From NCBI RefSeq assembly GCF_003334255.1, contig NZ_QOWU01000015.1: a stretch of DNA of 64,000 bases; one strand, given 5' to 3'. The position numbers and the translations under genes are program-made. This DNA comes from Escherichia coli. Lineage in GTDB: Bacteria; Pseudomonadota; Gammaproteobacteria; Enterobacterales; Enterobacteriaceae. Shown here in pieces: positions 11,812 to 31,511 of the stretch (its first letter is position 1; every line of letters starts with the position of its first letter). The notes beneath the pieces are model-generated. The model was not told where the DNA came from and ran no database searches. It worked only from the letters and a program-made list of their open reading frames with translations.

Positions 11812-11900
11812 CCTTTCCTAAAGCCAGCGCCCGTTTGCGAGACGGCGGAAAGGGCCGCAGTGGATAATACACTAACAGAACAATAATAACTCTCTTTTGC

Positions 11901-11935: not shown

Positions 11936-12032
11936 CGCTGAGACGCGCTTGCATTACTACGGTAATACAACCTGCTGGAAAGGCCGCGAACCGGACCAGC
12001 AACAAAAAACCGCCTGATTTTGGCGGTTTTTT
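11936..12032 (+). ncRNA. Candidate ~100-nt sRNA (TimR-like), copy 1
   Basis: Runs from the predicted TSS to an intrinsic terminator (ccgcc-tgatttt-ggcgg + T6, 12009-12032). Contains ggaaaggccgc, complementary (with one bulge) to the 5' UTR of the minus-strand small-ORF transcript. Confidence 0.4.
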
Positions 12033-12222
12033 GTTTTTTAAAGGAAAGTGAATTTACATGTTTAAGTAATATCTTTTACCGGTTAGAATTTTTAATTTTG
12101 AGCAGGATTTGTTTATATTTGTCTGAATTCAGACTAATAAGCCAGGTTATTTTATTACCGAACACGGCGGAAAGGGCCGGTGTCGATAATACGCTAAATA
12201 AACAATAATTACTCTCTTTTGC

Positions 12223-12257: not shown

Positions 12258-12357
12258 GCTGTGAAGCACCTGCGTTGCTCATGTAACACAAGTCAACCTG
12301 CTGGAAAGGCCGCGAACCAGACTAGCAATAAAAAACCGCCAAATTCGGCGGTTTTTT
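12258..12357 (+). ncRNA. Candidate ~100-nt sRNA, copy 2 (sibling of 11936-12032)
   Basis: Same promoter; diverged 5' half; conserved 3' block cctgctggaaaggccgcgaacc; terminator stem ccgcc/ggcgg preserved although the loop differs (aaattc vs tgatttt). Confidence 0.4.
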
Positions 12358-12373
12358 ATTGCCTGTAAAATAC

Positions 12374-22584: not shown

Positions 22585-22868
22585 TAGCCATTACGCCACG
22601 GTTACTTTATGTACCGTGGCGTAATGTTTTATGAATGAAGTATTAAGTTGCAATTGTCTGGTCAATATTAACGGTGCGTTTTTGCTGACTTTAAGGCAGT
22701 ATGTAACGATGCAACAGTAAGTTAGCCTTAGTGAATGTGGGCTTTGTCACGAGCACACAGACGGTCTTATACTGTATGATAACGGTTAACTTAACGGATG
22801 TTTCGCGGTGTGGGTGAGCATGATGGTTCACCGGCATCTCAATTCTCATTTAAACGTACCTGCAGCGA

Positions 22869-27060: not shown

Positions 27061-28239
27061 ATGCAATTGCGTAAATTACTGCTGCCAGGACTGCTTTCCG
27101 TTACCCTTTTAAGCGGCTGTTCGCTGTTTAACAGCGAAGAAGATGTGGTAAAGATGTCCCCATTGCCAACCGTTGAAAACCAGTTTACGCCGACCACGGC
27201 GTGGAGCACTTCCGTTGGTAGCGGCATTGGCAACTTCTATTCCAATCTTCATCCGGCACTGGCGGACAACGTTGTCTATGCAGCGGACCGCGCTGGTTTA
27301 GTAAAAGCGCTGAATGCGGATGATGGCAAAGAAATCTGGTCTGTCAGCCTGGCCGAGAAAGATGGCTGGTTCTCTAAAGAGCCTGCATTACTTTCTGGCG
27401 GTGTGACCGTGTCTGGTGGGCATGTCTACATTGGCAGCGAAAAGGCGCAGGTTTACGCGCTGAATACCAGCGATGGTACTGTGGCATGGCAAACTAAAGT
27501 CGCGGGTGAAGCACTTTCGCGCCCGGTGGTCAGCGACGGTCTGGTGTTAATCCACACCAGTAACGGTCAGTTACAAGCGCTGAACGAAGCTGACGGCGCT
27601 GTCAAATGGACAGTTAACCTCGATATGCCTTCGCTCTCTTTGCGTGGCGAGTCTGCGCCGGCAACGGCTTTTGGTGCGGCCGTCGTGGGGGGCGATAATG
27701 GTCGCGTCAGCGCAGTGCTGATGGAACAGGGCCAGATGATTTGGCAGCAGCGTATTTCCCAGGCGACCGGTTCTACCGAAATTGACCGTCTGAGCGATGT
27801 TGACACGACTCCCGTCGTTGTTAACGGCGTTGTTTTCGCGCTGGCCTATAATGGTAACCTGACGGCGCTTGATCTGCGCAGTGGTCAGATTATGTGGAAA
27901 CGCGAACTGGGTTCGGTGAATGATTTCATCGTCGACGGCAATCGCATCTATCTGGTCGATCAAAATGACCGGGTGATGGCGTTGACCATTGATGGCGGCG
28001 TTACGCTGTGGACACAAAGCGATCTGCTGCATCGCCTGCTGACTTCTCCGGTGCTGTATAATGGCAACCTGGTGGTCGGTGACAGTGAAGGTTATCTGCA
28101 CTGGATTAACGTCGAAGATGGTCGTTTCGTTGCCCAGCAAAAAGTTGATAGTTCCGGTTTCCAGACTGAACCGGTTGCCGCTGACGGCAAACTGCTGATC
28201 CAGGCAAAAGACGGAACCGTGTACTCTATTACACGTTAA
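27061..28239 (+). CDS. bamB: BamB outer-membrane assembly lipoprotein
   Basis: 392-aa ORF; lipobox LSGC; PQQ-like beta-propeller repeats. Confidence 0.95.
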   Translation: MQLRKLLLPGLLSVTLLSGCSLFNSEEDVVKMSPLPTVENQFTPTTAWSTSVGSGIGNFYSNLHPALADNVVYAADRAGLVKALNADDGKEIWSVSLAEKDGWFSKEPALLSGGVTVSGGHVYIGSEKAQVYALNTSDGTVAWQTKVAGEALSRPVVSDGLVLIHTSNGQLQALNEADGAVKWTVNLDMPSLSLRGESAPATAFGAAVVGGDNGRVSAVLMEQGQMIWQQRISQATGSTEIDRLSDVDTTPVVVNGVVFALAYNGNLTALDLRSGQIMWKRELGSVNDFIVDGNRIYLVDQNDRVMALTIDGGVTLWTQSDLLHRLLTSPVLYNGNLVVGDSEGYLHWINVEDGRFVAQQKVDSSGFQTEPVAADGKLLIQAKDGTVYSITR

Positions 28240-28356
28240 TCGTCTCTGTCGTTCACTTTGAAAACGGCTCCTGGACAGGGGCCGTTTTCCTGTTTTTAAC
28301 AACGACGCGAATATAGCGTGCGTTGTCTGATGATTTATAAAAATGAGGCTTTAAAC

Positions 28357-29829
28357 ATGGTACCTGTGGTCGCGCTTGTCGGGCGCCCTAACGTAGGAAA
28401 ATCCACGTTATTTAACCGTCTAACTCGCACCCGAGATGCGCTGGTTGCGGATTTCCCGGGTCTGACTCGTGACCGTAAGTACGGTCGTGCGGAAATTGAA
28501 GGCCGTGAGTTTATCTGTATTGATACCGGCGGGATTGATGGCACAGAAGACGGTGTAGAAACCCGCATGGCGGAACAGTCGCTGCTGGCGATTGAAGAAG
28601 CGGACGTCGTACTGTTTATGGTGGATGCGCGCGCGGGCCTGATGCCGGCAGATGAAGCGATTGCCAAACATCTGCGCTCCCGTGAAAAACCGACCTTCCT
28701 GGTGGCAAACAAAACTGACGGTCTGGATCCCGATCAGGCAGTGGTTGATTTCTACTCGCTTGGTTTAGGTGAAATCTACCCGATCGCCGCGTCTCACGGT
28801 CGTGGCGTATTAAGTCTGCTGGAGCATGTGCTGCTGCCGTGGATGGAAGATCTCGCACCGCAAGAGGAAGTCGACGAAGACGCTGAATACTGGGCGCAAT
28901 TTGAAGCGGAAGAGAACGGCGAAGAAGAAGAGGAAGACGACTTCGACCCGCAAAGTCTGCCGATCAAACTGGCGATTGTGGGTCGTCCGAACGTAGGTAA
29001 GTCTACACTCACTAACCGTATTCTTGGTGAAGAGCGCGTTGTTGTTTACGACATGCCTGGCACGACGCGTGACAGCATCTACATCCCAATGGAACGCGAT
29101 GGACGTGAGTATGTGCTCATTGACACCGCTGGCGTACGTAAACGCGGCAAAATCACCGATGCTGTAGAGAAATTCTCCGTAATCAAAACGTTGCAGGCCA
29201 TTGAAGACGCCAACGTGGTGATGTTAGTGATTGATGCGCGCGAAGGTATTTCCGATCAGGATCTCTCGCTGCTGGGCTTTATTCTCAATAGTGGGCGCTC
29301 ACTTGTCATTGTGGTGAATAAGTGGGATGGCCTGAGTCAGGAAGTGAAAGAGCAGGTGAAAGAAACGCTGGACTTCCGTCTGGGCTTTATCGATTTTGCT
29401 CGTGTGCACTTTATCTCTGCCTTGCACGGCAGTGGTGTTGGTAACTTGTTTGAATCAGTACGTGAAGCGTATGACAGCTCCACCCGTCGTGTGGGGACCT
29501 CTATGCTGACGCGCATCATGACGATGGCTGTTGAAGATCACCAACCGCCGCTGGTACGCGGTCGTCGTGTGAAGCTGAAATATGCCCACGCCGGTGGTTA
29601 TAACCCGCCGATTGTGGTGATTCACGGTAATCAGGTGAAAGACCTGCCTGATTCCTACAAGCGCTACTTGATGAACTACTTCCGCAAATCGCTGGACGTA
29701 ATGGGATCGCCGATTCGTATTCAGTTCAAAGAAGGGGAAAACCCGTATGCGAATAAGCGTAACACCCTGACGCCAACCCAGATGCGTAAACGTAAGCGTC
29801 TGATGAAGCACATCAAGAAAAATAAATAA
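28357..29829 (+). CDS. der: Der (EngA) double-GTPase
   Basis: 490 aa from ATG 28357; two G domains, each with GRPNVGKST. Confidence 0.95.
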
Positions 29830-29850
29830 TTATCCGTAAGTATTTTATCT

Positions 29851-29882
29851 GCCATTCCCTCTATGAATGTAGAGGGAATGGC
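29851..29882. repeat. Perfect 13-bp inverted repeat with a 6-nt loop
   Basis: gccattccctcta-tgaatg-tagagggaatggc, between the der stop (29829) and the yfgJ SD/ATG (29899); no T-tract follows. Confidence 0.9.
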
Positions 29883-29898
29883 TACCGGAGGAATTCAT

Positions 29899-31511
<1,613 letters not shown>

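Follow-up and report, generated by a model that had tools for sequence, protein, structure and literature searches.

A stem-loop without a U-tract as the probable 3′ boundary of der mRNA between der and yfgJ of Escherichia coli

Introduction

[quoted passage not shown] Within operons, the REP element between malE and malF acts both as a stabiliser and as an attenuator. REP325, another intra-operon REP found in yjdMN, likewise combines the two roles (Harris et al. 2026, bioRxiv 10.64898/2026.03.23.713779). In E. coli, Rho-dependent transcripts end immediately past stable stem-loops that have no U-tract; termination itself is diffuse and takes place further downstream, and the stem-loops then stop PNPase and RNase II. 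A switch between terminator types during evolution, driven by uridine content, was predicted from these observations (Dar & Sorek 2018, PMC6061677).

Here we follow up an unannotated inverted repeat located between der and yfgJ of a K-12-like E. coli genome, for which sequence inspection had suggested a processing site, an RNA stability element or a protein-binding site controlling yfgJ. Combining published K-12 transcript ends, variation among complete genomes and orthologous loci of other Enterobacteriaceae, we find it probable that the palindrome is an RNA stem-loop defining and protecting transcript 3′ ends, that is, a terminator-type hairpin devoid of a U-tract.

Results

A perfect palindrome next to the yfgJ ribosome-binding site

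The window, by which we mean the whole 64,000-nt stretch of DNA analysed, is E. coli K-12-like and contains bamB, der, yfgJ, xseA and guaB, as established by identity to annotated K-12 records; the same records place bamB at 27061-28239 and the der stop codon TAA at 29827-29829 (plus strand). The yfgJ CDS (29899-30114, plus strand) encodes a 71 aa double zinc ribbon protein (PF07191) and is transcribed via read-through of the hairpin described here. It is convergent with xseA (30111-31481, minus strand), the two stop codons overlapping by 4 bp, and the xseA transcript runs antisense through yfgJ up to the hairpin. Throughout, subtracting a window coordinate from 2665713 gives the K-12 position, on the minus strand.

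The repeat consists of the arms GCCATTCCCTCTA (29851-29863) and TAGAGGGAATGGC (29870-29882), complementary at 13 of 13 positions around the 6-nt loop TGAATG, and it starts 21 nt 3′ of the der stop and ends 16 nt 5′ of the yfgJ ATG. As RNA at the 3′ end of the der mRNA (29851-29882, plus strand), the 13 Watson-Crick pairs and a closing U·G pair leave an effective tetraloop GAAU, with a folding energy of −23.8 kcal/mol in the der sense. Because the repeat is symmetrical, the hairpin also folds in RNA of the opposite strand (−22.4 kcal/mol). Bar et al. 2023 print the same fold for their "der Primary" terminus (Supp. Data 3). Downstream of the stem come TACC, the yfgJ Shine-Dalgarno (SD) sequence GGAGG (29887-29891) and the ATG start codon (29899-29901). 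The original prediction of a mismatch-free 13-bp palindrome ending 4 nt before the yfgJ SD is therefore accurate in the window, coordinates included.

The palindrome is not a random occurrence. In first-order Markov simulations of the window, perfect hairpins of 13 bp or more arise 0.01 times per 64 kb, and the RNA fold of 29820-29915 (−32.6 kcal/mol) has a z of −4.96 against shuffles. Its arm sequence is single-copy in the window with up to two mismatches allowed and occurs once in each of 3665 E. coli genomes. No Rfam family matches the palindrome, the sole hit of a permissive scan of 29300-30400 being a piece of sraL within der at chance level (E = 9.6); a REP/BIME repeat was rejected on the same grounds of copy number and Rfam search. 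As for intrinsic termination, a stable GC-containing stem-loop is present while the 7-8 nt U-rich tract is missing: the tail UACCGGAG has one U in 8 nt and a T-score of 0.91, against 3.1-4.8 for the orthologous terminators described below. The terminator scan gave no consensus match at the palindrome, nor was a promoter-like site found on the plus strand of 29300-30400. This bears out the view that we are not dealing with a canonical intrinsic terminator, and der and yfgJ have no real terminator between them.

Transcript ends flank the stem on both strands

Published K-12 maps show 3′ ends on both sides of the stem, one for each strand. On the plus strand, a terminus catalogued as "der Primary" peaks at 29882-29900 (K-12 2635813-2635831), inside the yfgJ SD, with dominant positions 2635822 and 2635825, equivalent to 29891 and 29888 in the window and lying 6-9 nt past the stem (PMC10687069, Supp. 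Data 2 and 3). It was detected in three RNAtag-seq datasets, each made up of three libraries, where R amounts to 0.58, 0.76 and 0.69 and the adjusted p value of a library lies between ~1e-9 and 1e-39, and the fold assigned to it is exactly this hairpin, at −25 kcal/mol and with a longest U run of 2 (Bar et al. 2023, PMC10687069). On the minus strand, the xseA-sense terminus (29839-29850, K-12 2635863-2635874) is dominated by 2635869, window position 29844, 7 nt past the stem, and is present in two of the three datasets (R = 0.77-0.81) (PMC10687069). Overall, 1316 of 1814 LB RNAtag-seq termini were recovered by term-seq too (Bar et al. 2023, PMC10687069); because RNA is fragmented and ligated in RNAtag-seq, ends next to so stable a stem might be biased.

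Dominant 3′ ends at the hairpin are absent on both strands and in three conditions from the Term-seq lists of ~900-1200 ends of Adams et al. 2021 (PMC7815308), which we take as a weak negative because these lists are short and der and xseA are weakly expressed. The TERMITe (PMC12207403) and SMRT-Cappable-seq (PMC6131387) supplements hold no entry for the der-yfgJ hairpin locus.

R is 1 minus read-through, and in the same sheets guaA reaches 0.98-1.0 and the bamB terminator 0.70-0.96 (PMC10687069). Read-start density, taking the column to mean what we infer, is 0.35-0.41 for the yfgJ CDS against 0.48-0.56 for the der CDS, a ratio of ~0.7 (PMC10687069). Since the der-end R is below that of guaA and yfgJ density is ~0.7 of that of der, read-through into yfgJ is substantial, and roughly two thirds or more of transcription goes on into this gene.

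With bicyclomycin, Rho-dependent regions show up past the hairpin on the xseA-sense strand and, in the der/yfgJ direction, immediately beyond yfgJ (Adams et al. 2021, PMC7815308). The first is centred at 29793 (minus strand; K-12 2635920, plus strand; Rho score 11.2, p = 2.6e-45; PMC7815308 Supp. file 2), ~58 nt beyond the hairpin and antisense to der, and shows that the xseA-sense end is Rho-dependent. The second is centred at window position 30203 (plus strand; K-12 2635510, minus strand; score 3.8, p = 2e-6; PMC7815308), one position being given per ±800 nt, so that a der-sense site at the hairpin itself would be hidden behind it. Transcription in the der sense thus crosses yfgJ and is ended by Rho ~90 nt beyond the stop codon of that gene. 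Between the stop and this point, 30142-30186 (plus strand) contains an 8-bp hairpin (30142-30149 / 30169-30176) followed by the primary 3′ terminus of yfgJ (30185-30186; K-12 2635527 is position 30186). Ratios of C to G downstream are not clearly rut-like, at 0.81 in the der sense and ~1.0-1.1 in the xseA sense.

The xseA 3′ UTR measures ~270 nt and is antisense to all of yfgJ, and xseA-yfgJ figures as a convergent overlapping pair ("excludon") in the ExcludonFinder list. That a convergent xseA transcript ends at the same hairpin had escaped the original prediction.

Ends located 6-9 nt past the stem on both strands have the geometry of termination, and the hairpin itself might release RNA polymerase, be it as a leaky U-poor terminator helped by NusA, NusG or Rho or as a collision-type overlapping bidirectional terminator. 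Convergent transcription does cross the hairpin, about ten genera have a true intrinsic terminator at the orthologous position, terminators may pass through transition states between types (Dar & Sorek 2018, PMC6061677) and nascent stem-loops position head-on collisions at bidirectional terminators unlike intrinsic ones (Wang et al., bioRxiv 10.1101/2022.10.23.513370). However, the tail has a single U and a T-score of 0.91, and yfgJ RNA at ~0.7 of der RNA, like the der-end R values, points to der-sense release that is weak or absent. The collision variant, moreover, belongs to a class described as Rho-independent, whereas the xseA-sense end reads through strongly with bicyclomycin, and both genes are weakly expressed, a situation in which collision-based termination was reported to be less efficient (bioRxiv 10.1101/2022.10.23.513370). 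We consider release of polymerase by the hairpin unlikely as the main source of these ends.

Cleavage by RNase III was also looked at and appears unlikely: the stem has 13-14 bp against the ~20 bp or more needed, the longer helix that extends it has interruptions and is not kept in other alleles, and neither mapped end falls within the stem, the two being separated by 44-47 nt and each found 3′ of the stem as read on its strand.

Variation within E. coli and Escherichia

An intergenic region of this type is present in 3665 of 5426 complete E. coli genomes, and 1402 of the 3665 are identical to the window. The perfect palindrome is, in other words, strain-dependent, being found in ~40% of K-12-type genomes, and the claim of a mismatch-free stem that stands for the window does not extend to other strains. 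Of 40 rows sampled evenly over the ranking, 23 have a 78-nt match and lack one A of the 3′ arm. Variants of this arm turn GGGAATGGC into GGG-ATGGC, GGG-GTGGC (O157:H7) or GGG-GGGGC, a bulged stem with G·U pairs being kept. The hairpin changes of five variants all fall within two or three 3′-arm columns, and these columns account for all polymorphism in the 119-nt region but one SD change, carried by strain C1. A-to-G changes yield G·U pairs on the der-sense RNA and C·A mismatches on the other strand, as seen in the O157 type (−18.5 versus −15.0 kcal/mol).

A second allele is carried by ~1200 genomes (e.g., SF-166 and CE10) that match the query only as far as the der stop codon; their intergenic region is divergent, their yfgJ departs from that of the window mostly in the 5′ half, and the sinH island follows downstream. 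A hairpin is found in the same place in this B2-type allele (GGUUUCCCUUUCC-ACAC-GGAGAGGGAAGCC), with 13 bp including one or two G·U, and in SF-166 it folds at −21.9 kcal/mol on the plus strand versus −13.8 kcal/mol on the minus strand. The wobble pairs of the B2-type, O157-type and E. albertii variants pair in the der-sense orientation only.

Considering eight Escherichia hairpins together, 96.3% of cells are paired, as opposed to 40-73% in slid controls. Compensatory double changes affect 5 of 14 pairs, a level reached by 2 of 500 shuffles, in a set of few and related sequences where the K-12 allele by itself accounts for four of these five changes. These figures derive from hairpin-only alignments leaving out three variants with a 1-nt deletion, for which MAFFT placed the gap at the row end; a whole-region alignment of K-12-type and B2-type sequences was dropped, its hairpins being out of register.

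The same alleles bear on the idea that the hairpin is a cis-regulator of yfgJ, tuning ribosome access through its proximity to the SD or through an extended helix, or, once the RNA has been processed, serving as a stabiliser at its 5′ end. [quoted passage not shown] The extended pairing is nevertheless not conserved, since the SD is left unpaired by the B2-type allele and by those of E. whittamii and E. albertii; the closeness of hairpin and ATG results from a short spacer that is also seen in genera with an ordinary terminator; and the ends of der transcripts map within the SD, which means that the RNAs they delimit lack yfgJ. Taken together, specific control of yfgJ, as originally suggested, finds no support in a compact spacer and in SD/AUG-covering pairing that the B2-type allele does not have, and we regard such a regulator as very unlikely.

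The orthologous site in other Enterobacteriaceae

A YfgJ profile scan of one genome per species returned 80 loci. In ~28 of them yfgJ follows der directly, as it does in the window and in the two loci of B2/F type; the remaining ones are paralogues located elsewhere. A stem-loop just 3′ of the der stop is present in all 30 der-yfgJ loci examined among the Enterobacteriaceae, its core ending 15-22 nt ahead of the ATG in most of them and up to ~40 nt in Kosakonia, Pantoea and Salmonella. Primary sequence turns over completely between genera and pairing is kept, meaning that the hairpin, and not the sequence of the palindrome, is what is conserved in enterobacteria.

Tail and stem statistics were computed for the 28 loci with a clean core hairpin, omitting Salmonella diarizonae and strain M-21, where the core hairpin was not delimited. 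Eleven loci form a U-rich group (Kosakonia, Buttiauxella, Cedecea, Atlantibacter, Pantoea, Superficieibacter, one further genus and, as a borderline case at 2.94, Pseudocitrobacter faecalis), with 4-7 U in the 8-nt tail, T-scores of 2.9-4.8 and a median stem of 9 bp and −16.2 kcal/mol; the ten with a T-score of at least 3.1 (3.1-4.8) look like canonical intrinsic terminators. The other 17 loci (Escherichia, Citrobacter, Trabulsiella and two Pseudocitrobacter) are U-poor, with 0-3 U in 8 nt (mostly 1-2), T-scores of 0-1.75, K-12 among them, and a median stem of 13 bp and −21.9 kcal/mol. U-poor stems are longer and more stable (Mann-Whitney p = 0.0009), and T-score correlates negatively with stem length (Spearman rho = −0.54), both figures being uncorrected for phylogeny. 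The E. coli hairpin is the positional equivalent of the der intrinsic terminator of other Enterobacteriaceae, in which, on the Escherichia side, the U-tract is absent and the stem longer. At the orthologous site, Salmonella enterica subsp. diarizonae appears to have a REP-like palindrome.

In 27 of the 30 loci, the plus (der-sense) strand of the intergenic region gives a better fold than its complement (Wilcoxon p = 2e-5, uncorrected for phylogeny). Sequence comparison would thus favour selection acting at the RNA level, on the der-sense strand.

These comparisons also weigh on the possibility that the palindrome has no RNA function at present. It could be a DNA feature, such as a dimeric-protein operator or a cruciform, or else a decaying remnant of the ancestral der terminator that became perfect in K-12 through an accident of mutation (correction of a quasipalindrome by template switching), with the mapped ends as by-products or artefacts. 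The 13-6-13 symmetry is indeed perfect in the window, polymorphism confined to 3′-arm columns suggests a quasipalindrome mutational hot spot and the Term-seq lists mentioned above have no end at the hairpin. But all 30 loci keep a stable hairpin although the sequence has turned over completely, U-less stems are longer rather than decayed, G·U pairing restricted to one strand is favoured neither by DNA recognition nor by cruciform extrusion, and the ends are reproducible over nine libraries and three datasets. We find such an explanation highly improbable. The dimeric protein-binding site raised by the original prediction was rejected in particular: it is the structure that is conserved and not the half-site sequence, which differs between genera, the wobbles pair in the der sense only, most loci fold better in that sense, and 29300-30400 offers no promoter-like site for an operator to act on.

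Discussion

We read the palindrome as a protective 3′ stem-loop of the der mRNA because its anatomy and the available data match the class of Dar & Sorek. RNAs carrying der end 6-9 nt past the stem, while much transcription goes on into yfgJ and is stopped by Rho. According to this reading, most of the hairpin-proximal ends would come from longer RNAs, Rho-terminated or cut inside yfgJ, that are trimmed 3′-to-5′, and, by analogy with the class, trimming by PNPase or RNase II would halt at the stable stem. The expected result is a stabilised der mRNA and a der message somewhat more abundant than that of yfgJ. On the other strand, the convergent xseA transcript, after ~270 nt antisense through yfgJ, ends 7 nt past the same stem in a Rho-dependent manner.

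Among the options originally listed, an RNA stability element or processing site is the one that fits, given ends 6-9 nt past the stem in at least three RNAtag-seq datasets and a conserved hairpin. Checking 3′-end profiles, as had been proposed, did reveal transcript ends at the hairpin in the RNAtag-seq maps; a palindrome that is neither conserved nor associated with a transcript end, which would have spoken against the prediction, is not what we see, because ends map there and the hairpin is conserved.

It is tempting to go further and view the hairpin as a two-way boundary coupling der, yfgJ and xseA, which would set the der:yfgJ ratio and anchor the antisense xseA 3′ UTR, with xseA and yfgJ opposed in an excludon-like manner and variation at the site dialling yfgJ output. 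The forms seen there range from a U-tract terminator through a U-less long stem, with bulged and perfect versions in E. coli, to the REP-like palindrome of Salmonella, and were the boundary reading true, such variation could explain the reported strain differences in yfgJ expression. We offer this as speculation, and consider it quite doubtful.

Returning to the protective stem-loop, it gives an unannotated palindrome a concrete role backed by evidence, that of bounding, in E. coli K-12, both the der mRNA and the 3′ UTR of xseA at their 3′ ends. The der site is also a clean natural example, at one orthologous position, of the predicted switch between an intrinsic terminator and a U-less protective hairpin, the stem lengthening as the U-tract goes. 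Beyond annotation the importance is small, the comparative series being of modest value, and we claim nothing categorically new since the terminus had its entry in a published table covering the whole genome (Bar et al. 2023, PMC10687069).

Four described systems come closest. Canonical intrinsic terminators, as found after der in Atlantibacter, Kosakonia, Buttiauxella, Cedecea and Pantoea, occupy the same place with a GC-containing stem, a loop of 4-6 nt and an end 6-9 nt past the stem; the E. coli site departs from them in its U-poor tail and T-score, in a stem of 13-14 rather than 8-10 bp and in its substantial read-through. Overlapping bidirectional terminators share with it a single stem-loop, ends on both strands, convergent units and a sequence unlike that of an intrinsic terminator (Wang et al. 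2022, bioRxiv 10.1101/2022.10.23.513370). Flanking ends on both strands are thus common to the two, but Rho independence is not, the xseA-sense end being bicyclomycin-sensitive; in addition, the hairpin lies upstream of yfgJ and not between the stops, and expression is low. Intra-operon REP elements are likewise palindromic hairpins between co-directional genes that protect the upstream mRNA, limit the downstream gene and are partly Rho-linked, from which the der-yfgJ hairpin differs as a single-copy, unique sequence without the REP consensus.

The resemblance to protective 3′ stem-loops (Dar & Sorek 2018, PMC6061677) extends to a terminator-like energy, a precise end a few nt past the stem, weakly expressed genes, the lack of both a U-rich tail and an upstream A-tract (the tails being UACCGGAG on the plus and AGAUAAAA on the minus strand) and Rho-dependent read-through nearby, demonstrated on the xseA-sense strand. 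The der site is peculiar in standing inside an operon-like der-yfgJ pair, 4 nt from the next SD, and in serving both strands. Overall, the hairpin is an ordinary, already described kind of bacterial 3′-end element and not a new regulator.

Alleles and apparent insertions downstream of der

The region downstream of der occurs in E. coli as two sharply distinct alleles, whose divergence starts exactly at the der stop codon (29830-30010 in the window; 1551-1700 in L001 and L002, two B2/F-type comparison loci). In the K-12-type allele, carried by 3665 of 5426 E. coli genomes, yfgJ directly abuts xseA, while the B2/F-type allele, found in about 1200 genomes, has an intergenic region of its own, a sinH (intimin-like) island downstream and a yfgJ that is highly diverged in its 5′ half. 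The K-12-type YfgJ protein is closer to that of Pseudocitrobacter (73-76% identity) than to the product of the other E. coli allele (66-68%), and this protein comparison suggests that recombination replaced one form by another long ago.

Within the 119 nt surrounding the hairpin, polymorphism is confined, one Shine-Dalgarno variant excepted, to 2-3 columns of the 3′ arm (29876-29878), where the changes are a 1-nt deletion together with A>G and T>G. K-12 may owe its perfect palindrome to quasipalindrome 'correction' by template switching; alternatively, slippage may have given rise to the bulged forms.

Larger differences are also found at the der 3′ end. At one Escherichia albertii locus (L059, 700-1500) and in E. 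coli E69 (L010), the final ~21 nt of der (CATATCAAGAAAAATAAGTAA) adjoin the hairpin and the sequence upstream of them is not der; in E. albertii that place is taken by a 199-aa ORF whose C-terminus carries an AlpA-like DNA-binding motif. From the sequence, both loci appear to record integration of a mobile element at the der 3′ end with duplication of the attachment site. E. coli Z1323HEC0067 (L003, 1582-1824) carries a frameshifted remnant of an IS4-family transposase between der and sinH, in place of yfgJ and the hairpin.

Hairpin types at the der 3′ site

Stem length at the orthologous site was compared between der loci L026, L033, L043, L067, L073 and L082 on the one hand and the window, L001, L012, L029 and L059 on the other. 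Where a U-tract follows, the hairpin is short (medians 9 bp and -16 kcal/mol); where it is missing, the hairpin is long (medians 13 bp and -22 kcal/mol), a difference that may represent a trade-off of general validity between stems that terminate and stems that protect. In the intergenic region of Salmonella enterica subsp. diarizonae (L037), the positional counterpart of the der hairpin is a palindrome (AGGCCUGACAAGCGUAGCGCUAUCAGGCCU) that is REP-like in sequence, a putative third kind of 3′ hairpin at this site.

yfgJ start codon, 3′ end and paralogues

The hairpin contains two ATGs in the yfgJ reading frame, one in the loop (29863) and one in the 3′ arm (29878), which would extend YfgJ by 12 or 7 residues, respectively. 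Certain database entries for YfgJ are longer, at 97-114 aa, and are probably start-codon miscalls. At the other end of the gene, the convergent yfgJ and xseA overlap by 4 bp (TTAA, 30111-30114) that hold the stop codons of both. The yfgJ transcript ends at 30185-30186, inside the xseA coding region; this end follows a hairpin of 8 bp whose loop is 19 nt long (30142-30186, transcript end included), and a region of Rho termination has its centre at 30203.

Paralogues of the YfgJ family are present away from der in many Enterobacteriaceae (Enterobacter, Lelliottia, Leclercia and some Citrobacter; comparison loci L008, L014, L015, L019, L020, L028, L030, L044 and others). One recurrent context has a conserved, extended -10-like motif (GTGGTAAAAT) ~40 nt upstream of the gene; in another, the gene comes after a gene for a membrane protein and a GC-rich hairpin (CCGGGGC...GCCCCGG).

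Other palindromes in the window

A canonical intrinsic terminator (AAAACGGCUCCUGGACAGGGGCCGUUUUCCUGUUUUU) stands between bamB and der at 28261-28293, and published data place a strong 3′ end at 28291-28293 (K-12 2637420-2637422). Expression of der must consequently depend on read-through or on a promoter of its own within the 117-nt spacer.

Two perfect 14-16 bp palindromes, AACAAAAAACCGCC...GGCGGTTTTTTGTT at 12001-12035 and GCAATAAAAAACCGCC...GGCGGTTTTTTATTGC at 12325-12362, have the form A-tract/GC stem/T-tract and, judged by this form, look like bidirectional intrinsic terminators. Since a palindrome of the TAACTCTCTTTT...AAAAGAGAGTTA type lies ~110 nt upstream of each (at 11887 and 12211), the pairs 11887/12001 and 12211/12325 suggest a duplicated unit.

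Finally, a perfect 14-bp palindrome with a 10-nt loop (22589-22626) lies 5 nt past the rlmN stop codon, and UUUUAU comes directly after it. In published data the 3′ end of rlmN (K-12 2643081, window 22632) falls 6 nt past this stem, a stem-to-end distance equal to that at der.
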